The position numbers and the translations under genes were made by a program. The notes under the pieces were generated by a model that saw only the letters and a program-made list of their open reading frames with translations, ran no database searches and was not told the origin of the DNA. Positions 2,466 to 23,424 of a stretch of DNA of 32,000 nucleotides are shown piece after piece; position 1 is the first letter of the stretch, and every line of letters starts with the position of its first letter. Source of the stretch: Pseudomonas aeruginosa (GTDB lineage: Bacteria; Pseudomonadota; Gammaproteobacteria; Pseudomonadales; Pseudomonadaceae). The stretch spans positions 3,180,001-3,212,000 of the forward strand of contig NZ_LN831024.1 of the NCBI RefSeq assembly GCF_001457615.1, in the 5' to 3' direction.

Positions 2466-3578
2466 ATGACCCGCATCACCGAAGTCGTGGTCGAGCGTCG
2501 CCAGCTCACCACCGCCGCCCTGCGTACGCGCAACCTGCCCGCCCCGGAGGCGCTGGCGGAAGGCCAGGCGCTGCTGGCGGTCGGCGAGTTCGCCCTGACC
2601 GCCAACAACGTCACCTATGCCGCCCTCGGCGATGCCCTGCGCTACTGGGAGTTCTTCCCGGCCGGCGAGGGGCTGGGCATCGTCCCGGTCTGGGGCTTCG
2701 CCGAGGTGCTTGCCTCGCGCTGCCCGGGGGTCGAACCGGGCGAGCGCTTCTATGGCTACTATCCGATGGCCAGCCACCTGCTGGTCGCGCCGGCGCAGGT
2801 CCGCGGCAGCGGCTTCGTCGACGCCAGCGAGCACCGCCGGAACCTCCCGTCGGTCTACAACCAGTACCTGCGCTGCAGCAGCGACCCGCTCTACCGGGCC
2901 TCCGACGAGGCCCTGCAGATGCTCCTGCGGCCGCTGTTCACCACCTCGTTCCTGCTCGACGACTTCCTCGCCGAGCATGCCTTCTTCGGCGCCACCGACC
3001 TGCTGCTGAGCAGTGCCTCGAGCAAGACCGCCATCGGCCTGGCCTTCCTCCTCCAGCGCAATCGTGCGCAACGCGGCCAGGACTACCGCATCGTCGGCCT
3101 GACCTCCGCGGGCAACCGCGCCTTCGTCGAAGGCCTGGGCTGCTATGACGAGGTCCTGGCCTACGACCGCCTGGACGCACTGGACGCCAGCGGAGACGCG
3201 TTGAGCGTGGATTTCGCCGGCAACGGCGCCCTGCTCGGCCAGTTGCACCAGCGCCTGGGCGACCGCCTGCGCTACAGTTGCCTGGTCGGCGCCGCCCACT
3301 GGGACCAGCGCGGCGGCCTGCCGAAGGCGCTGCCGGGTCCGACGCCGAAGCTGTTCTTCGCCCCGGCGCAGGCGGAAAAACGCCTCAAGGACTGGGGCGG
3401 CGCGGCGTTCCAGGCGCGCCTGGCGGAAGTCTGGGGCGAGTTCTCGGCCTTCGTCGGCGGCTGGATCCAGGTCCGCCGCGGTGTCGGCGGCAGCGAGGTG
3501 CTGGAGGTCTACCAGGACCTGCTGGCCGGGCGCTCGGCACCGCAACTGGGCTACATCCTTTCCCTCGACGGCGGCTGA
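2466..3578 (+). CDS. DUF2855-family protein (MDR/dehydrogenase-like, function unknown)
   Basis: GGAGGAA SD before the ATG. Matches my recollection of DUF2855 signatures (FALTANNVTYAALGDALRYWEFFP, PVWGFAEV, GERFYGYYPMASH, HRRNLPSVYNQY). Family assignment is from memory. Confidence 0.75.
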   Translation: MTRITEVVVERRQLTTAALRTRNLPAPEALAEGQALLAVGEFALTANNVTYAALGDALRYWEFFPAGEGLGIVPVWGFAEVLASRCPGVEPGERFYGYYPMASHLLVAPAQVRGSGFVDASEHRRNLPSVYNQYLRCSSDPLYRASDEALQMLLRPLFTTSFLLDDFLAEHAFFGATDLLLSSASSKTAIGLAFLLQRNRAQRGQDYRIVGLTSAGNRAFVEGLGCYDEVLAYDRLDALDASGDALSVDFAGNGALLGQLHQRLGDRLRYSCLVGAAHWDQRGGLPKALPGPTPKLFFAPAQAEKRLKDWGGAAFQARLAEVWGEFSAFVGGWIQVRRGVGGSEVLEVYQDLLAGRSAPQLGYILSLDGG

Positions 3579-15912: not shown

Positions 15913-16311
15913 ATGACCCGCGCCATCAACGATCCCGGAAACGAAGACCCCGGCTCCCTGCTGGAAACCGACGCCGACGCCCTGCTCGGCGGTGCCGCCG
16001 CCCAGGCGCCGGAAGAGCGCTGCCGGCTCGCAGCCCAGGCCTGCATCCGCGCGTGCGAGCGCTACCTGGCGCTCTGCATCGAGTCCAGCAGGGAACAACG
16101 CCAGCACGCCGGCGACTGCGCCGACCTCTGCCGCCTCGCCGCCCTGCTACTGGAGCGCCGCAGCCCATGGGCGCCGGCCGCCTGCGAGCTGGCGGCGCGC
16201 TATGCCCTGGCATGCGCGGAGCGTTGCGATGGCGACGAGCCGCTGGAGCGCGAATGTGCGGGTGCCTGCCGGCGCTTCGTCGAGGCCTGTCGGCCGTTGT
16301 TGCCGGCCTGA
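15913..16311 (+). CDS. Cys-rich four-helix-bundle protein (DUF326 / copper-storage Csp-like)
   Basis: AGGAGG SD. 12 Cys in 132 aa, mostly as C-x3-C on predicted helices (CIRAC, CADLC, CAERC, CAGAC). No signal peptide. Confidence 0.8.
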   Translation: MTRAINDPGNEDPGSLLETDADALLGGAAAQAPEERCRLAAQACIRACERYLALCIESSREQRQHAGDCADLCRLAALLLERRSPWAPAACELAARYALACAERCDGDEPLERECAGACRRFVEACRPLLPA

Positions 16312-16402
16312 GGCCCTCTGGCATTGCATGGAGCTGCCGGGCGTGGCGAGGGTGACCTGTGGCGTAGAATGGGAAACCGACGGCCATGTCGACGGTAGTC
16401 GC

Positions 16403-17137
16403 TCAACCCAGTACCAGTACCACCCTACGGGTGCGCGCTGATTTCTTCTCCATCTTGGAAACGCGCACCACCCCAACTTCTTCGGTATTCGCCACATGGG
16501 TTCCACCGCAAGGCTGCAGGTCGGTGTCTTTAATACTCACCAACCGAACCTGCCCGGCGCCCATCGGAGGTTGGACACTCATGGTGCGCACCAGATCTGG
16601 CCTAGCCCGCAGTGCATCGTCGCTCATGGTGTCGATCGAAACCGGATGTGCTGCCTCGACCATTGTCGCCAAGGCGCTATCAATGGCCTCGCGGGACAGC
16701 GGTTCACTCGTCACGAAGTCCAGGCGCGCATGCTCATCAGTGATGCTGCACCCATTGACCGGATAGGGCAGGACAGCACAGAGCATGTGCGCTGCGGTAT
16801 GCAGTCGCATGTGCCGGTAACGACGCACCCAATCGATCTGCGCAAGAACCACCTCGCCAGGCTTCATTGCTCGGAGAACGGTTGCCTGGCCTTCAGCTGG
16901 GATATGCAGGATGGCATCCCTGCCAGCACCTGCTTCTGTCCCCTTGCGTGTATCGGCGATCCGGAGCCGCGTGCCATCAGCCAGCGTCAGCCAACCACTG
17001 TCTCCAGCCTGGCCACCCCCCTGGGGATAGAAAACGGTCTGGTCGAGCAGCAGGCCATCTTCAACGAGATCGGTGATTCTCGCCAAACACTCTTCCCGGT
17101 AGGAGTCCTGGAGAAAAAGGGAGGCGGTCTGCGTCAT
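16403..17137 (-). CDS. AlaX-like alanyl/threonyl-tRNA synthetase editing-domain homologue (tRNA_SAD)
   Basis: Intact Zn motifs HTAAH (H113/H117) and CGGTH (C210/H214) and an N-terminal AlaRS-type barrel (FYPQGGGQAGD). ATGA overlap with the upstream acetyltransferase gene. Confidence 0.88.
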   Translation of the reverse strand: MTQTASLFLQDSYREECLARITDLVEDGLLLDQTVFYPQGGGQAGDSGWLTLADGTRLRIADTRKGTEAGAGRDAILHIPAEGQATVLRAMKPGEVVLAQIDWVRRYRHMRLHTAAHMLCAVLPYPVNGCSITDEHARLDFVTSEPLSREAIDSALATMVEAAHPVSIDTMSDDALRARPDLVRTMSVQPPMGAGQVRLVSIKDTDLQPCGGTHVANTEEVGVVRVSKMEKKSARTRRVVLVLG

Positions 17138-17877
17138 GATGCCTCCATTGGTTGAATTTGGGTCTGCGTGGCTGCCGGCTGTAGTTGCTGAACTATGTGG
17201 GGGCCTCGGATGACCTGTAGTTCAGAACGCAGGGTTACGACTGAACCGACAGGGATGTCGTCCTTGATGACACAATGCGGACCGACAAACACATCGTCGC
17301 CGATAGCGATGTCACCCAGTACACGCGTGAAGGCCCCGATTTGGACGCGGCTCCCTATGGTGGGGTGACGCTTACCGGCGGGATTAGCCGATATGCCAGT
17401 TGCCCCCAATACCACACCTCCGAGGATGTAACAGTCATCACCGATTACCGCTGTCTCGCCAATGACCGTGCCATGCCCATGGTCCAGGATGAATCGACTG
17501 CCAATCTTGCATCTTGGGTGGATTTCCGCGCCCGACAGGAGCTTTCCACGAGAGGAGACCAGGAGCGCGGTAGCCTCCAACGCTCTCTCAGGATCGCCTT
17601 CAGATGTGCTTCGCAGACACAGCATGTGGGAAAGCCGGTAGTGCAGCACTGCCTTAAACGAGCTGTAGCCAAACGCAATGTCGGATGTCCGTCCCTGTGC
17701 GGCTGGATCCTTGCTGGCGAATGCCTGCAGGTCTTCCTCGCACCAACGTCTGGCTTCTTCGAACATCGAATGAGCGACTATCCGCTCCACCAGTTGGGGT
17801 GAGCAGCACTCCATCAATGCCGCGCGCATCAGATTACCTACCAGTTTGTCCATCGCATGCGACCTCATTTCGACCAT
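17134..17877 (-). CDS. Serine O-acetyltransferase-like hexapeptide-repeat acyltransferase (CysE family)
   Basis: SATase-like N-terminal helical region (DPAAQGRTSDIAFGYSSFKAVLHYRLSH) and a left-handed beta-helix (IHPRCKIGSRFILDHGHGTVIGETAVIGDDCYILGGVVLG...KRHPTIGSRVQIGA). The alternative start ATG 17853 has a better GAGG SD. Confidence 0.85.
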   Translation of the reverse strand: MVEMRSHAMDKLVGNLMRAALMECCSPQLVERIVAHSMFEEARRWCEEDLQAFASKDPAAQGRTSDIAFGYSSFKAVLHYRLSHMLCLRSTSEGDPERALEATALLVSSRGKLLSGAEIHPRCKIGSRFILDHGHGTVIGETAVIGDDCYILGGVVLGATGISANPAGKRHPTIGSRVQIGAFTRVLGDIAIGDDVFVGPHCVIKDDIPVGSVVTLRSELQVIRGPHIVQQLQPAATQTQIQPMEAS

Positions 17878-17910
17878 GCAAGCGTTATCGCCGTGCTCTG
17901 CTCTACAACT

Positions 17911-18828
17911 TCATCGAAAAGCGTCCATGTATGACTCGACGCCATCGTAGATCATCGTCAGTACACGAGCGCCTGACGGCATGGCAGATGCCATGTTCAG
18001 CACCGCGACCAGGTTGGCTGCGGAGGACAACCCCATGCTCACAGAGTCGTTTTGCAGGACTTCCCGGATCATCGACAAGCAGGCAGATTTCGACACCCCG
18101 ACCATGCCAGTAACAATGCCGAGGTTGCAGACTTCCGGCACGATACCAATGGAAAGTCCCTGAATCTCATGCGGTGCGTGCCTATCGTCGAGCAAGTCGC
18201 ACTGCTCTGGCTGCACGCCATAGATGGCCATATCCGGCCAGTGGTTCCTCAGCACCTCTCCAACACCCGTGATATGTCCACCAGTTCCAATGCCAGCGAA
18301 GAAGAAGTCCGGGGGTGGCTGGCCTGCAAAGTCCCTCAGGATTTCCAGGGCTGTAGCTTCGCGATGGGCTTGCGGGTTGGCTGGATTGCGCTGCTGGTTG
18401 AGCATGACGAACTCCGGATGTTCCAGCAGTATCTGGATTGCCAGCTCGCCATGCGAGTTGTTCCCTTTTCTGCTATCCGACAGCACGACGTGAGCGCCAT
18501 ACAGCTCGAGCAATTGTCTCTTGTCAGGGCTGTAGTTGTCGGGAACCACCAGGGTCACGCGGTACCCCAGGATGTTCCCCGCCATTGCCAGTCCAATCCC
18601 CGTATTTCCCCCGCTCGGCTCGAGAATGGTCTGCCCTTTCCCGCGCACCAGGATTCCTTTGCGTTCGGCATCCAGAATCATCCAGAGCGCGATACGCGCC
18701 TTATGACTTCCTCCTGGATTGAAGGATTCCAGCTTGGTGAATACGCTCACCCCCAGGCGAGCAGACAATTTGCTCAGCCGTATCACCGGCGTCCCGCCAA
18801 TTAAATCGAGTAGCGAATCGTAGATCAT
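17911..18828 (-). CDS. PLP-dependent cysteine synthase-family enzyme (CysK/CysM-like, divergent active-site motif)
   Basis: LIGGTPVIRL...ESFNPGGSHKARIA (PLP Lys43), EPSGGNTGIGLA and GIGTGGHITG are fold-type II PLP signatures. Confidence 0.9.
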   Translation of the reverse strand: MIYDSLLDLIGGTPVIRLSKLSARLGVSVFTKLESFNPGGSHKARIALWMILDAERKGILVRGKGQTILEPSGGNTGIGLAMAGNILGYRVTLVVPDNYSPDKRQLLELYGAHVVLSDSRKGNNSHGELAIQILLEHPEFVMLNQQRNPANPQAHREATALEILRDFAGQPPPDFFFAGIGTGGHITGVGEVLRNHWPDMAIYGVQPEQCDLLDDRHAPHEIQGLSIGIVPEVCNLGIVTGMVGVSKSACLSMIREVLQNDSVSMGLSSAANLVAVLNMASAMPSGARVLTMIYDGVESYMDAFR

Positions 18829-18846
18829 GCTTTCCCTGCCTATGGT

Positions 18847-20265
18847 TCAGTACATCGGCATGTGCTGCTCTATCTCTTTCGCCCATCGCTTCATGCCGCC
18901 ATCGAGCACTTGGACGTTGGAGAACCCTGCCCCCATGAGCTGTATGGCCGCGCGTTCGGCACGAGTGCCGGCGTAGCACACGAGGATGTAGCGCTTACTG
19001 AAGTCGAGATTGGCGAAATGGCTGGCGAGTTCGTTCAAGGGAACGTGGACGATCCCCGGCAACTGGCACACTTCGAGCTCGCCCGCGTCGCGTACATCCA
19101 GAAGGGCATAGTTTTCGCTGTTGGATTTCATCAACTGCAACAGGCAGCTGGGATCGATATAGCGATCGTCGTCGAGTCGTTGCGACGGTGCCGCGCTTGC
19201 CTGGCAGAGCAATCCCTCCCTCCAGTGGCGGGGATTCTCTGCAGCGGTTTTGCCGCAGGCCGGACAATCGTCGCGCCGATTGAACTTCACTTCATTGAAG
19301 TGCATGAGCAGCGCGTCGAATCGAAGAAGTCTGCCTGATAGGGACTTGCCCAGGCCGACGAGGGCCTTCACCGCCTCGGTTGCCTGCAGCAGGCCAATCA
19401 CTCCAGGCAGCACACCAATAACTCCCCCTGCGTTACAGCTTGGAGCCACCTCAGGCGGGGGATTGTTCGGGAAGAGACATTGGTAGCAGGGGCCTCCCTC
19501 CAGATTGAAGACGCTGACCTGACCTTCGAACCGATAGATCGCGCCAAAGACGAGTGGTTTTCCGAGCTTGGCGCAAACCGCGTTGACCAAGTAACGTGTG
19601 GCGAAGTTGTCGGTGCCATCCAATACCAGGTCATAGCTCTGAATCAGTGACTGCGCATTGTCCGCGTCGATGGCGTAACGGTGGGTTACGACTTCAATGT
19701 AGGGGTTCAGGTCCTGCATCCGGCGCTGGGCGGACTCAACCTTCGGCATACCGAGCGTGCTATAGCCATGGACGACCTGGCGCTGGAGATTGCTCGACTC
19801 CACCACGTCAAAGTCAACCAGCCCGATGGTGCCCACTCCTGCTGCGGCCAGATAAAGGCAAGCGGGCGAACCCAGGCCGCCCGTTCCGATTATCAGCACC
19901 CTGGCCTGCTTCAGGCGCTGCTGGCCTTCCCTGCCAACGCCTGGCAACGTGATGTGGCGAACGTAGCGTTGAACTTCTTCGTCGCTCAACGCTTCAACGC
20001 CAGAACCGCCAGATGTCGCGAGCATGACTTCGACTTCATCTCCATCGGAAAGCTCGCCATCCAGATTGACTAGCGAACCTTTGTGGGTCAGCAGGAAGTG
20101 TTCTTTCAATTGACCGTTTTCGTAATACAGGTGCCCGAGTAATGAAGGATGCTTCCTGGCAAGGCCTGCCAGCAGCTCGCCAACCGTCAAGCCCGCTCCC
20201 TCCAGGCGCCCGCCTTCCAGTTGGGCGGCCCGTACCAGTACTTCCGGAAAAATTACCGTCTTCAC
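18847..20265 (-). CDS. Tri-domain fusion: MoaD/ThiS-like ubiquitin-fold domain (aa 1-87, ending ...EVEVMLATSGG), MoeB/ThiF E1 adenylyltransferase and a C-terminal rhodanese
   Basis: GTG start with AAGGAG SD. Nucleotide-binding LIIGTGGLGSP, Zn CxxC pairs (CYQC, CPAC) and a rhodanese active-site loop VCYAGTRAE. The internal Gly-Gly is at codons 20010..20005. Confidence 0.9.
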   Translation of the reverse strand: MKTVIFPEVLVRAAQLEGGRLEGAGLTVGELLAGLARKHPSLLGHLYYENGQLKEHFLLTHKGSLVNLDGELSDGDEVEVMLATSGGSGVEALSDEEVQRYVRHITLPGVGREGQQRLKQARVLIIGTGGLGSPACLYLAAAGVGTIGLVDFDVVESSNLQRQVVHGYSTLGMPKVESAQRRMQDLNPYIEVVTHRYAIDADNAQSLIQSYDLVLDGTDNFATRYLVNAVCAKLGKPLVFGAIYRFEGQVSVFNLEGGPCYQCLFPNNPPPEVAPSCNAGGVIGVLPGVIGLLQATEAVKALVGLGKSLSGRLLRFDALLMHFNEVKFNRRDDCPACGKTAAENPRHWREGLLCQASAAPSQRLDDDRYIDPSCLLQLMKSNSENYALLDVRDAGELEVCQLPGIVHVPLNELASHFANLDFSKRYILVCYAGTRAERAAIQLMGAGFSNVQVLDGGMKRWAKEIEQHMPMY

Positions 20266-20287
20266 TTTTCAGCTCCTTGCCAGATGT

Positions 20288-20746
20288 CTACTCGTCCTGG
20301 CTCGATGGCCCGAACTCTCGTGTGCATTCAAAGCGTCCGTTGCGCCAGGCAAACAGTTTTGCGCCGCGAACGTTGCCGGCGGCCACATCAACAACCAGGT
20401 AGTCGACCGGCAGCATTGGCTCCCCGGCATACAATGCCTTGTCGATATCCTCCCGGCTGAAGTAGGCACCGACGTCCGGGTGGGAGTGGTAGATGACGGA
20501 TACCGGGCTGCACGTCTTGAAGCTGCTGTTGAGGAATACGGTATCCGTCACGGAAAACGTGTACCCGTTGGCGGCCGTGCGTGGGTACCTCCGGGGGTCA
20601 GCCATGTGCAGTTCATCCTGGATGTTCGTACCCTCTTTCACTTTTGCATCGGCGAGAACGAATCCGCAGCATTCCCTTGGATAGGTCCTGCAGGCGTGTC
20701 TGTAGATCACGCTCAATGCATGCTCGGTCAACACGTTCGTATTCAT
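20288..20746 (-). CDS. JAMM/MPN+ (Mov34, Mec+/QbsD-like) metallopeptidase
   Basis: AGGAGG SD 6 nt before ATG 20746. Complete JAMM motif: E25 (PRECCG) and HSHPDVGAYFSRED (H-x-H-x7-S-x2-D). The stop of the upstream EamA gene lies 1 nt before this ATG. Confidence 0.88.
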   Translation of the reverse strand: MNTNVLTEHALSVIYRHACRTYPRECCGFVLADAKVKEGTNIQDELHMADPRRYPRTAANGYTFSVTDTVFLNSSFKTCSPVSVIYHSHPDVGAYFSREDIDKALYAGEPMLPVDYLVVDVAAGNVRGAKLFAWRNGRFECTREFGPSSQDE

Positions 20747-20747
20747 G

Positions 20748-21689
20748 TCACCTCCTGCCGAGCAGCTTCTCGATGGGAAGCTTGGTGATGGCAAATCCAG
20801 CCAATAGGAGCACGGTGAAGCCAATCAACTCGCGAGAGATGGCAACCCCTTCGTACCAGGCGCCGATGATCACGGCGAACACCGGGAAAATGATGAAGAC
20901 GAACGACAGCACAACGGGACTCAAACGCTTGAGCAGGAAGAAGTACACGATGAATCCCCCGACTGATGCCACCAGACCGAGATAGATCAGGGCAGCCCAA
21001 GATCGGCTTGTGACGGCAGACAGGTTCGGGTGTTCCATCACGAGTCCGGCCATGAACAGCCCCAAGCCGGCGATGCCAATGGGCAGCGTATTGAAGGTGA
21101 TCACGCCGATGTCAGCACCTTGCCTTTTGGTGATGACGTAGCTGAGTGCGTGCATGATCGCCGCGAGCAGGATGGCAAGTACGCCTAACAACTCCGTGTA
21201 GTCCAGATGCAGCCCTTGAGACCTGATGATCATGAACAGGCTGCCGAAGCCAATCGCAATACCAAGGATCTGCGACAGGTAGATGCGCTCGCGCAGGAAG
21301 ATCGCGGAGAAGATCAGGATGAACACGGGCATGCTGCTGAACAGCAGCGCGGTAAGACCTGAAGCGACGTATTGCTCGCCATAGTTCAGCAGGTAGTAGG
21401 GCACGCTGAAGTAGCCGAGCGTCACGAAGACGAAGAAGGCCAGGAGTCGCCGCGGGAAAAAGATCGTCTCGTGGCGCAGCCGCGCAAAGAGCAGGAAAAG
21501 CGGAAATGCGATCAGAAAGCGCAATCCGGCGGCAGTTAGCGGCGGCACGCTCTCCACGGCGATCTTGATGCCGAGCCAGGTAGTCCCCCAGCTGATACAC
21601 ACCACTAGAAATAGAACAGCGGTCACCAGGCTGGCCACACGTACCTGCCGCCTGTTGATAGTCAGAGCTTGAATTGACATAAGTTGCAC
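20748..21689 (-). CDS. EamA/DMT-family transporter (10 TM; same family as the E. coli O-acetylserine/cysteine exporter EamA)
   Basis: Two EamA-type repeats of hydrophobic helices (CISWGTTWLGIKIAVESVPPLTAAGLRFLIAFP...). Start is GTG 21689 or ATG 21680. Confidence 0.88.
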   Translation of the reverse strand: MQLMSIQALTINRRQVRVASLVTAVLFLVVCISWGTTWLGIKIAVESVPPLTAAGLRFLIAFPLFLLFARLRHETIFFPRRLLAFFVFVTLGYFSVPYYLLNYGEQYVASGLTALLFSSMPVFILIFSAIFLRERIYLSQILGIAIGFGSLFMIIRSQGLHLDYTELLGVLAILLAAIMHALSYVITKRQGADIGVITFNTLPIGIAGLGLFMAGLVMEHPNLSAVTSRSWAALIYLGLVASVGGFIVYFFLLKRLSPVVLSFVFIIFPVFAVIIGAWYEGVAISRELIGFTVLLLAGFAITKLPIEKLLGRR

Positions 21690-21720
21690 GTCTTTCCCCC
21701 ATGTTATTCTTTGATTGACG

Positions 21721-21750
21721 CCCTTTATTGCTTATCAAACCTCTTTATTT
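21721..21750. promoter_or_regulatory. Candidate MocR operator: direct repeats CC(C/T)CTTTATT spaced 20 bp apart in an AT-rich divergent promoter region
   Basis: CTTTATT at 21723-21729 and 21743-21749, plus TTGAT (21711-21715) / ATCAA (21734-21738) inverted half-sites, within the 81-bp gap between the operon and the MocR gene. Confidence 0.3.
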
Positions 21751-21770
21751 GAGGTTAATTCGGAGAAAAT

Positions 21771-23204
21771 ATGCCGGTCAAAGCAAATATTGACACCGAT
21801 TCAATTTTCAGATTCTTCCTACCAGAAGGGCCCGGCCTGAAGTACAAACGGCTGGCCCAGGGCATCGAAGAATCTATTCGCAATGGGGTTCTCCGGCAGG
21901 GAGTCAAGCTGCCGCCACATCGCATCCTCGCGGACAAGCTCGGTGTGACCGCGGGCACGGTGAGCCGGGCCTATGGTGAGCTGGAGCGCATGGGGCTGGT
22001 TGAGGCTCGGGTCGGCGACGGTACGTTCGTCCGCAACCGCGGTCGAGAACGTGCTCGGGAGGCGGGCTTTCGCAATTTCGTAGACAGCACCGAGATGTGC
22101 AACGACATGAGCCGGAATATGCATATTCCGGGCAATGAGACCGAACTGCTTTCCCGCAGCCTTCAGCAATTGAGTGCGGCCCCTGAGCTCCTGCAGGAGT
22201 TAATGCTCTACACACCCGACACAGGACTGCTCCGACACCGGCAAGCGGGAGCAACATGGCTGTCTCACGGTGAGTTTCAAGCGGAGCACCAGCAGATTCT
22301 GTGCGTCAATGGCAGCCAACACGGTCTGCTCGTCGTGCTTATGGCCATGCTGCGCGCCGGCGACACCCTGGTAACGGAGCAGCTCTCCTATCCTGGGCTG
22401 ATCAGTGCCGCGCAACTGTTGGGCATCAAGGTGCTCGGCTTGGAAATGGATGAAGAGGGGCTACTGCCCGACGCCCTCGAAGAGGCCTGCCGCACGAACA
22501 GGATCACCGCCCTGTACTGCACACCCACCATCCAGAACCCGACCACTGCAGTGATGTCAGGCGCCAGGCGGAAGGAAATCGCGAAGATCTGCCGCGAGCA
22601 CGGCTTGATCGTCATCGAGGACGAAACCCATGCTGTATTGATGGCCGAACGCCCCACCCCTCTCTGCCATCTGCTGCCTGAGCGGGGCATCCTCATCGGT
22701 GGCATGAGCAAGGCGGTCGCTGCAGGATTGCGGGTTGGATACGTTCATGCTCCTGCATCCATGGTAAGTCGCATGGCAGCAGCGCTTCGCAATTCGTGCT
22801 GGATGGCGACACCACTGGTTCTCGAGATTGCGAGCCGATGGGTCGAGGACGGTACTGCAAGCGCACTGCTCGAATACCAGAGAGGGGAAATCGCGCGTCG
22901 CCAAGCGCTGGTTGTGGACCTGCTGCAGGGCCTGACCTATCGCAGCCATCTATGCTGTCCGCATTTCTGGGTAGAAGTGCCAGCCCCCTGGCGCGCCATC
23001 GAAATAGAGCAAGGCATGCGCGGACAGCAGCATCTTGTCACCACCGCAGAGGCCTTTAGTACGGGCCGCGGTACGCTTCCCCAGGCCATTCGAATCAGCG
23101 TCAGCAATTCCCCAGGAGGGGGGAATACGTTATCTGACGGCTTCGCAGTCCTGGCAGCGCTCCTACGCGAAGGCCCCCAAGAGATGCTGACGATGCGTGC
23201 TTGA
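21771..23204 (+). CDS. MocR-subfamily GntR regulator (wHTH plus a PLP aminotransferase-like effector domain)
   Basis: GntR HTH (KLPPHRILADKLGVTAGTVSRAYGELERMGLVEARVGDGTFV) and a fold-type I domain with the PLP-Lys motif GGMSKAVAAGLRVGY. Confidence 0.9.
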   Translation: MPVKANIDTDSIFRFFLPEGPGLKYKRLAQGIEESIRNGVLRQGVKLPPHRILADKLGVTAGTVSRAYGELERMGLVEARVGDGTFVRNRGRERAREAGFRNFVDSTEMCNDMSRNMHIPGNETELLSRSLQQLSAAPELLQELMLYTPDTGLLRHRQAGATWLSHGEFQAEHQQILCVNGSQHGLLVVLMAMLRAGDTLVTEQLSYPGLISAAQLLGIKVLGLEMDEEGLLPDALEEACRTNRITALYCTPTIQNPTTAVMSGARRKEIAKICREHGLIVIEDETHAVLMAERPTPLCHLLPERGILIGGMSKAVAAGLRVGYVHAPASMVSRMAAALRNSCWMATPLVLEIASRWVEDGTASALLEYQRGEIARRQALVVDLLQGLTYRSHLCCPHFWVEVPAPWRAIEIEQGMRGQQHLVTTAEAFSTGRGTLPQAIRISVSNSPGGGNTLSDGFAVLAALLREGPQEMLTMRA

Positions 23205-23424
23205 TACGGGAGGCAACGGTCCCACCCGAGGAGGACTCTTGGGCTCAACGGTAGCGATAAGCACCGGCGCCTGACTAAGGCATACCTATGGTCCGAGATC
23301 TACCATGGATTTCACTCGCCTGGGACGGCGAAACAAGAAGTCGAGGCAGCCACGAAAAGCAGCTAGACCATCCAGCGTGAAACCCACCCAAGCTTTAATC
23401 CGTTCTATCCATCCTGCGCAGAGC

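Follow-up and report, generated by a model that had tools for sequence, protein, structure and literature searches.

How can a sulfur carrier work when the Gly-Gly at which it should end lies deep inside a much longer polypeptide? This question is raised by a 32,000-nucleotide stretch of the Pseudomonas aeruginosa genome (contig NZ_LN831024.1, positions 3,180,001 to 3,212,000; hereafter the window, in whose coordinates positions are given), which encodes a 472-amino-acid protein consisting of a ubiquitin-like (Ubl) sulfur-carrier domain, an E1-type adenylation domain and a rhodanese domain, next to a JAMM metallopeptidase. As encoded, Gly87, the last residue of the carrier, is followed by 385 further residues, so that the open reading frame (ORF) codes at best for a carrier precursor and not for a carrier as such. 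The chain is probably a carrier-E1 proprotein that is cut at Gly87 by the JAMM protein, after which the freed carrier would serve thiocarboxylate-dependent amino-acid synthesis. The parts of the two genes are as follows.

18847-20265, minus strand: Ubl-E1-rhodanese ORF, 472 amino acids, GTG start
20273-20278, minus strand: Shine-Dalgarno sequence AAGGAG, 7 nucleotides 5' of the GTG at 20265, read directly from the sequence
20005-20265, minus strand: sulfur-carrier Ubl domain (CysO/MoaD/SAMP1-like beta-grasp), residues 1-87, ending LATSGG; Gly-Gly codons GGC GGT at 20010-20005
19990-20004, minus strand: linker, residues 88-92, SGVEA; predicted scissile bond between Gly87 and Ser88
19240-19989, minus strand: E1 adenylation domain (MoeB/ThiF/MoeZ type), residues 93-342 approximately
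18877-19134, minus strand: rhodanese domain, residues 378-463, with the active-site loop C430-x-x-G433-x-R435
20288-20746, minus strand: JAMM/MPN+ metallopeptidase (PA2102 type), 152 amino acids, Pfam Prok-JAB

Residues 1-87 are a real sulfur-carrier-type domain, as indicated by a structural model, fold matches, profile matches and free-standing relatives. The AlphaFold (AF2) model of residues 1-92, computed from 20 homologues, is a beta-grasp with a mean predicted local distance difference test score (pLDDT) of 91.3 and a predicted template modelling score (pTM) of 0.80, and its confidence falls only past residue 82. In a Foldseek search of the PDB, this model matched SAMP1 (3po0), the Amycolatopsis CysO (4n6e_B) and MoaD (1fm0_D) with template modelling (TM) scores of 0.72-0.81, and it matched M. 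tuberculosis CysO (3dwg_C, 3dwm_A) with TM scores of 0.78-0.81. At the sequence level, the carrier-domain profile detects SAMP1 (E-value 4e-05), 4n6e_B (9e-04) and the Pyrococcus MoaD 1vjk (1e-03), and the last residue of each of these three proteins falls on profile position 87. A phmmer search of 1.84 billion representative proteins yielded 54 relatives of the carrier, many of which are free-standing proteins of 86-92 amino acids that end in SGG or AGG at the aligned position. Some of the free-standing relatives have short tails past the Gly-Gly (GG-YS in P0242, which adjoins a JAMM gene in locus L084, and GG-MGCR in P0241) and resemble precursors of the QbsE and CxnE type; in another one, P0239, the Gly-Gly is lost and the end reads ...LATSNRVDFTSSI.

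The remainder of the chain is equally well delineated. Pfam ThiS (PF02597) matches residues 19-87 (26.5 bits, cutoff 22.5), with Gly87 at the final profile position (76/76), whereas ThiF matches residues 101-335 (280.9 bits) and Rhodanese matches residues 378-463 (55.2 bits). Escherichia coli MoeB (1jw9_B) aligns with residues 92-339 of the 472-amino-acid protein (1.1e-63); since MoeB residue 3 is aligned with residue 92, a complete E1 starts 5 residues past the Gly-Gly. What the chain joins head-to-tail is thus two complete proteins, and not an unusual extension and an E1. The E1 scores above the cutoff of the MoeB subfamily (PRK05690, 316 bits, cutoff 266) and well below that of the MoeZ equivalog (NF005902, 393 bits, cutoff 647), so that the E1-rhodanese portion, which has the MoeZ architecture, belongs to an orthologous group distinct from the mycobacterial MoeZ. 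In the alignment of homologues, the E1 residues R100/R103 (Arg finger), G127-G132, D153, K175 and D216/D219 are invariant, as are the zinc-binding CxxC cysteines C260/C263/C334/C337 and the rhodanese residues C430, G433 and R435; C277 of the crossover loop is nearly invariant. The E1 thus has its full catalytic set, with nucleotide-binding glycines, Arg finger, catalytic Asp and two zinc motifs. The very C-terminus of the ORF, MPxY (residues 468-472, window 18847-18861), is conserved as well, with P470 and Y472 invariant and M469 nearly invariant; the NCBIfam MoeZ and PRK07411 profiles align up to this terminus, which therefore belongs to the wider MoeZ-like family.

The adjacent 152-amino-acid protein (Q9I213_PSEAE by exact-sequence look-up) scores 68.6 bits with Prok-JAB (cutoff 25) and contains the JAMM motif E25, H87-S-H89, S97 and D100, in agreement with the pattern E...H-x-H-x7-S-x2-D; the motif is complete in 85 of 85 complete homologues. 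Its sole NCBIfam match is a weak one, to the haloarchaeal desampylase. These results bear out the anatomy put forward in the original prediction, which was made from the letters of the sequence alone and according to which a MoaD/ThiS-like segment of residues 1-87, expected to model as a beta-grasp with the Gly-Gly codons at 20010-20005, runs straight into an E1, and the gene immediately upstream encodes a complete JAMM motif.

The junction is conserved beyond chance, as seen in a set of 82 loci, namely 80 species-level genome loci, the window and one identical metagenomic contig. In all 82, LATSGG is followed by a linker of exactly 5 residues, the sequence of which varies, the first residue (P1') being M, I, L, S or T. 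In alignments of 22 and of 53 homologues, with identity down to 54%, A83, S85, G86 and G87 are invariant; L82 is invariant among the 22 and at least 90% conserved among the 53, and residues 88-92 are free to vary. The AlphaFold model of the full chain, computed as a monomer, has a pLDDT of 81.7, and residues 85-89 form one of its five stretches with pLDDT below 50, others being the crossover loop of the E1 and the E1-rhodanese linker; by this model, the junction looks like an exposed flexible hinge. These loci contain no second carrier gene: a hidden Markov model (HMM) of the Ubl domain, run over every stop-to-stop segment of 50 amino acids or more in the window and the 81 other loci, found one Ubl match per source, including one in the whole window, and none besides it within 8 kb on either side.

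The strongest indication that Gly87 is where the carrier ends comes from the different fusion states of the same cluster. At 61 of the 82 loci, mostly from the P. fluorescens group, the JAMM domain is in the same reading frame as well, giving a JAMM-Ubl-E1-rhodanese chain of about 619 residues (e.g., L009 7500-9410, P0016 and P0076). If such a four-domain chain is cut at the Gly-Gly, the JAMM domain would remain tethered to the N-terminus of the carrier. A separate JAMM protein next to a fusion of the Ubl, E1 and rhodanese domains is found in P. aeruginosa, Burkholderia, Paraburkholderia and others. Finally, metagenomic and genomic contigs reached via the free-standing carrier relatives contain a fully split version of the cluster.

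L085/L086: SAT-like, EamA, JAMM, Ubl (87 amino acids), ThiF (251 amino acids, without rhodanese), PALP; the carrier ends ...AAGG-TGA and the ThiF ATG comes 1 nucleotide later
L082: MocR, EamA, JAMM, Ubl (87 amino acids), PALP, SAT-like, AlaX-like, without E1; the carrier ends ...LLATSGG-stop
L084: SAT-like, HD, EamA, JAMM, Ubl (88 amino acids), PALP; the carrier ends GG-YS
L087: JAMM, Ubl (87 amino acids), PALP; the carrier ends GG-stop

Here, SAT stands for serine O-acetyltransferase and PALP for the Pfam family of the CysK-like enzyme. The split clusters are orthologous to the one in the window, as judged by the identity of their proteins to those of the window (CysK-like, 51-62%; JAMM, 39-51%; EamA, 43-55%; SAT, 44-48%; AlaX, 46%). 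Since their free 87-amino-acid carriers stop at the Gly-Gly, Gly87 has in evolution served as a true carrier C-terminus, and the P. aeruginosa arrangement appears to be a stop-loss fusion of neighbouring genes. Furthermore, L082, L084 and L087 combine the carrier with JAMM and CysK-like genes without an adjacent E1, which indicates that the pathway enzymes have the carrier, and not the E1, as their obligate partner. In L082, the gene caller missed a complete JAMM gene (2728-3162) located between EamA and the free carrier; it is readable in frame, with the motif HSHPDVGAYFSAED intact, and its product is 51% identical to the window JAMM, so that the gene call taken at face value would wrongly imply a cluster devoid of JAMM. 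The series from split genes through Ubl-E1 to JAMM-Ubl-E1-rhodanese is a clean natural experiment within a single gene-cluster family.

This series also changes the view of what the JAMM protein does. It is encoded next to, or fused with, the carrier at every locus, and directly upstream of the carrier in all split loci, including those where the carrier needs no maturation (L082, L085/L086 and L087), which implies that it acts on the mature carrier. From this gene context, the JAMM protein can be predicted to hydrolyse the bond after Gly87 of the carrier. The primary, ancestral role is probably the release of an amino-acid product, as performed by Mec+ of M. tuberculosis, a JAMM protein that hydrolyses the CysO-cysteine adduct (PMC3227635), whereas maturation of the proprotein would be an added, derived use. 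The two reactions are readily reconciled: the carrier-product bond and the Gly87-Ser88 bond are both Gly-Xaa alpha-peptide bonds, so that a product-releasing JAMM protein would also process a read-through fusion, and such fusions would accordingly be tolerated and spread. The series would thus show how read-through fusions come to be tolerated where a peptidase with Gly-Gly specificity is already at work. Of the dual role suggested at the outset, with maturation in front and product release as a further possibility, both halves are retained and their order is reversed.

In the window, the carrier and JAMM genes are accompanied by the following genes.

21771-23204, plus strand: MocR/GntR-aminotransferase-type regulator (PA2100, mdrR2), divergent; Pfam GntR and Aminotran_1_2
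20748-21689, minus strand: EamA-family transporter (PA2101 type), first gene of the operon; Pfam EamA, 145 bits
17911-18828, minus strand: CysK/CysM-family pyridoxal-phosphate (PLP) enzyme (PA2104 type), 305 amino acids; Pfam PALP, 243 bits
17134-17877, minus strand: SAT-like hexapeptide acyltransferase (PA2105 type); Pfam Hexapep
16403-17137, minus strand: AlaX-like tRNA-editing-domain protein (PA2106 type); Pfam tRNA_SAD and tRNA-synt_2c

The seven-gene unit is tightly packed, with gaps of 0-33 nucleotides; the EamA stop codon is 1 nucleotide ahead of the JAMM ATG, and the start of the AlaX-like gene overlaps the stop of the SAT-like gene by 4 nucleotides. The cluster is kept in 80 of 80 species-level genome loci, in the order divergent MocR, then EamA, JAMM, Ubl-E1-rhodanese, CysK-like, SAT-like and AlaX-like, and the complete seven-gene set is present in 79. 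Carrier, E1-rhodanese, JAMM and CysM-family enzyme thus co-occur in one operon in 80 of 80 genomes. The divergent MocR gene is found in 79 of the 80 and in the split locus L082, the exception (L002) containing too little upstream DNA to show it. The EamA gene is conserved in all cluster variants, and the CysK-like gene follows the carrier gene in each of them; the SAT-like and AlaX-like genes both occur at all 80 loci, and among the split loci the former is found in L082, L084 and L085 and the latter in L082. The CysK-like enzyme is closer to CysK-type enzymes of known structure (6e-63) than to M. tuberculosis CysM (1e-47) and scores below the NCBIfam equivalog cutoffs of both cysK and cysM; the relatives in the PDB that score well include cysteine synthases, O-ureido-L-serine synthase (a non-sulfide beta-replacement enzyme), SbnA, CBS and M. 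tuberculosis CysM, none of them at an equivalog cutoff. The SAT-like protein reaches 141 bits with NCBIfam cysE (cutoff 210), and the AlaX-like protein 184 bits with AlaXM (cutoff 300). In the translation of the latter, the HxxxH and CxxxH zinc motifs read as intact.

On these grounds, the following scheme can be proposed as the probable function of the operon. Before any cut, the carrier would be inert, its Gly87 being engaged in a peptide bond. The neighbouring JAMM protein would hydrolyse the Gly87-Ser88 bond of the intact 51.2-kDa chain, releasing a carrier of 9,268.5 Da (residues 1-87) and an E1-rhodanese of 41,981.6 Da (residues 88-472), the new N-terminus of which would correspond to that of free MoeB. 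The predicted tryptic peptide across the uncut junction is GSLVNLDGELSDGDEVEVMLATSGGSGVEALSDEEVQR, and the predicted semi-tryptic peptides of the cut junction are ...VMLATSGG, GSLVNLDGELSDGDEVEVMLATSGG and SGVEALSDEEVQR. The E1 would then adenylate Gly87, and the persulfide on C430 of the rhodanese domain would turn the adenylated glycine into a thiocarboxylate (expected shift, +16 Da). The SAT-like enzyme would make O-acetylserine, and the CysK-like PLP enzyme would add the carrier thiocarboxylate to the aminoacrylate intermediate; following an S-to-N acyl shift, the same JAMM protein would hydrolyse the bond between Gly87 of the carrier and the cysteine, so that cysteine (or a close relative) is freed and the carrier can be used again. 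Export of the product, or of surplus O-acetylserine, might be the task of the EamA transporter. Accordingly, the operon most likely serves the thiocarboxylate-dependent synthesis of cysteine, or a related thiol amino acid, from O-acetylserine; that the SAT-like gene is always adjacent suggests O-acetylserine rather than O-phosphoserine as the substrate. Cysteine synthesis in P. aeruginosa is pursued as a drug target, and PA2101-PA2106 can be regarded as an uncharacterised sulfur/cysteine module that bears on the cysteine metabolism of this bacterium. The late regrowth of a P. aeruginosa cysK cysM double mutant has been taken to suggest an extra cysteine synthase such as PA2104 or PA1061 (PMC12800425).

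Several observations weigh against this scheme. The scores of the CysK-like and SAT-like proteins below the NCBIfam cysK, cysM and cysE cutoffs leave neither O-acetylserine nor cysteine established. The conserved AlaX-like protein has no part in the scheme or in a simple cysteine pathway, and no sulfur donor to the rhodanese domain is named. The retention of JAMM where the carrier needs no maturation means that its presence alone is no proof of a maturation role. A different family of Ubl-ThiF fusions co-occurs with free ThiS, and its fused Ubl probably has another role, according to the survey in which it is described (PMC1779556). The literature searched reports neither cleavage of this protein nor a thiocarboxylate on it. 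The AlaX-like protein may give self-protection against mischarging of tRNA by serine or by the product. A different version of the scheme, which we regard as unlikely, is that the operon is no reserve route to housekeeping cysteine and makes a thiol or other beta-substituted amino acid for export, with EamA as the exporter, the AlaX-like protein guarding the cell's own tRNA charging, and the JAMM cut acting as a post-translational on-switch that in the P. fluorescens group would take the form of self-processing of the polyprotein in cis.

The evidence on the junction also allows alternative interpretations to be assessed. One of them is that translation starts at Met81, yielding a 392-amino-acid MoeB, and that the upstream Ubl is untranslated sequence, that is, an annotation artefact. 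Many deposited P. aeruginosa records of the gene are indeed 392 amino acids long and begin MLATSGG..., others having 472 (exact-sequence look-up). Nevertheless, this interpretation is extremely improbable: the 80 upstream codons are conserved as protein across 82 loci from several genera, the segment is modelled confidently as a beta-grasp and is in frame with JAMM at 61 loci, the P. fluorescens group has Leu in place of Met81, and the GTG at 20265 follows a strong AAGGAG. The 392-amino-acid form is very likely a start-codon mis-call, which in the databases removes the carrier domain (window 20023-20265, codons 1-81) from view. It could also be that the fusion is translated in full and never cut, the beta-grasp being a docking or regulatory domain, in which case the E1-rhodanese would charge a housekeeping MoaD or ThiS and the JAMM protein would act only on the adduct of that carrier. 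Such an arrangement would be in line with the mycobacterial MoeZR, which serves several carriers (PMC3227635), and with the account of ThiF proteins with an N-terminal Ubl in operons that also encode free ThiS, where a different role of the Ubl has been proposed (PMC1779556); moreover, cleavage is something that we infer. It is difficult to see, however, why a docking domain would keep LATSGG invariant at 82 of 82 loci while the following five residues vary freely, or why orthologous clusters would encode the domain as a free 87-amino-acid protein ending at Gly-Gly. No other carrier is present at any of the 82 loci, L082, L084 and L087 pair the carrier with JAMM and CysK-like genes with no adjacent E1, and the full-chain model predicts a flexible, exposed Gly-Gly segment. 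An uncut fusion therefore seems unlikely.

If the chain is cut after Gly87, the cut might still be made by another protease or by autoprocessing, with the adjacent JAMM protein only releasing the product in the manner of Mec+. Product release alone would explain the conservation of JAMM, which is present in split clusters with a mature carrier. Yet both reactions hydrolyse the same Gly87-Xaa bond on the same beta-grasp, so that one enzyme should do both; JAMM proteins have been shown to cut linear Ubl fusions (PMC8832034), 61 of the 82 loci encode the JAMM domain and its presumed substrate in one chain, and the conserved genes of the loci examined include no other protease. A different agent of cleavage is thus unlikely. 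A further alternative concerns the fate of the freed Ubl, which might be, perhaps in addition, a protein modifier of the SAMP1/TtuB/Urm1 kind, with JAMM as its deconjugase. In sequence and structure, the carrier best matches SAMP1, a protein that acts as a sulfur carrier and also as a modifier, and the weak match of JAMM to the desampylase points in the same direction. Against this, the cluster always encodes CysK-like and SAT-like enzymes and a transporter, and never an E2-like protein, and a rhodanese domain is typical of sulfur-transfer E1s and, according to the 2006 survey, never found in the E1s of E2/JAB conjugation-type neighbourhoods (PMC1779556); a modifier role is very unlikely. The preferred interpretation hence remains that the JAMM protein cuts the proprotein at Gly87 and later releases the amino-acid product.

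The system that comes closest in composition is the CysO/CysM/Mec+/MoeZR pathway of M. tuberculosis (PMC3227635), which has the same four elements, a beta-grasp carrier with Gly-Gly, an E1 with a C-terminal rhodanese domain, a JAMM protein and a CysK/CysM-family PLP enzyme. Unlike in M. tuberculosis, the carrier is here fused to the E1, and often also to JAMM; the E1 is encoded within the operon, whereas moeZR is located elsewhere; the ever-present SAT-like gene points to O-acetylserine, not O-phosphoserine; and the EamA transporter, the AlaX-like protein and the MocR regulator are additional. For the proposed cut, the closest precedents are fusions in which a Ubl is joined via Gly-Gly to a partner enzyme, such as the MoaD-MoaE fusion of Deinococcus radiodurans (DR2607), the mycobacterial MoaX and the SAMP fusions cut by HvJAMM1. 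DRJAMM cuts DR2607 leaving a C-terminal Gly, and HvJAMM1 cuts linear fusions (PMC8832034); in the Deinococcus system, the cut after Gly-Gly exposes the glycine carboxylate and is required for activity, and the same cut is proposed here. The differences are that the partner of MoaD in that system is MoaE, the sulfur acceptor, and the pathway is that of molybdopterin, whereas the present carrier is joined to its own E1-rhodanese and would serve amino-acid thiolation; and that cleavage was demonstrated there by experiment and is predicted here. With E1-rhodanese instead of MoaE as the fusion partner, the protein is not a member of the cleavable MoaD-MoaE class, though it would work alike.

Clusters combining an E1 with a rhodanese domain, a JAMM protein and a ThiS/MoaD-like carrier are also known from Pseudomonas and actinomycete pathways, namely QbsC/QbsD/QbsE (thioquinolobactin), PdtF/G/H (PDTC) and CxnE/CxnF (chuangxinmycin) (PMC5925218, PMC1779556). 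In these systems, JAMM proteins have been proposed to trim carrier tails past the Gly-Gly, CF in QbsE (by QbsD) and a decapeptide in CxnE (by CxnF) (PMC5925218), so that the tails consist of 2-10 residues as opposed to the 385-residue enzyme found here. In addition, what is thiolated there is an adenylated small-molecule carboxylate or a secondary metabolite, and the CysK-like/SAT-like pair is missing. The Ubl-ThiF fusions of the Campylobacter type are unlike the present one in being located in thiamine operons, beside a free ThiS and without a JAB protein, and a non-carrier role was proposed for them in the survey (PMC1779556); the present fusion has no free carrier beside it, always comes with JAMM and keeps its Gly-Gly invariant.

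The operon type of P. aeruginosa was already listed by Iyer, Burroughs and Aravind in 2006 (Table 1, row 4c), who also proposed that the JAB protein cuts ThiS/MoaD fusions to free their C-terminus (PMC1779556). That listing is purely computational, and the accessible part of the text does not mention the Ubl-E1 junction, the four-domain chains, the SAT, AlaX, EamA and MocR partners or the split orthologues. The literature searched contains no biochemistry on PA2102, PA2103 or any Ubl-E1 fusion, and PA2100-PA2106 and mdrR2 appear in it only in transcriptome tables, passing mentions and the 2006 survey. The novelty claimed in the original prediction was overrated in view of the 2006 proposal (PMC1779556) and of the demonstrated JAMM cut of MoaD-MoaE (PMC8832034). 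The mechanistic reasoning is well founded, and the maturation step was predicted in general terms in 2006; what is added here is the identity of the locus, the four-domain chains, the split orthologues, which both fix Gly87 and re-weight the role of JAMM, and the annotation error. Should the proposal be correct, no earlier case would be known of a ubiquitin-like sulfur carrier that is synthesised together with its activating enzyme in a single proprotein, from which a JAMM protein sets it free. Ubiquitin is made as fusions that are matured by deubiquitinases. The carrier-E1 proprotein arrangement parallels these fusions and bears on the origin of ubiquitin-like proprotein processing.

The genomic setting of the cluster suggests a history of its own. 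The seven-gene unit (window approximately 16300-23400) is a low-GC island, with 53-63% GC against 68-78% in the flanks. The P. aeruginosa cluster proteins are 80-85% identical to those of Bordetella and Burkholderia and only about 60% identical to those of other pseudomonads, which suggests horizontal transfer. Around the island, direct and inverted repeats do not go beyond short matches at chance level, nothing points to a mobile-element boundary, and no mobility genes were found; a promoter and terminator scan gave no more matches than shuffled controls. For strain PA14, the cluster genes are given as not determined (ND) in one transcriptome table, an indication that the cluster is absent from that strain. 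In published gene lists of PAO1, the genes are named as a MocR-type regulator, mdrR2 (PA2100), an EamA transporter (PA2101), a Mov34/MPN protein (PA2102), 'MoeB' (PA2103), 'probable cysteine synthase' (PA2104), an acetyltransferase (PA2105) and an AlaS-domain hydrolase (PA2106). PA2101-PA2106 respond together in published P. aeruginosa transcriptomes and are thus co-regulated: PA2100-PA2103 are induced by N-acetylcysteine (PMC9431628), and PA2101-PA2106 are raised under RpoH overexpression (PMC9866376). The MocR-type regulator scores 452 bits with NCBIfam EhuR, just under the cutoff of 480. The SAT-like protein varies in length, with 348 amino acids in the P. fluorescens group (L009 10318-11364) versus 247 in P. 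aeruginosa, and the extra C-terminal residues, about 100 in number, occupy an apparent gap of about 360 nucleotides ahead of the AlaX-like gene in L009.

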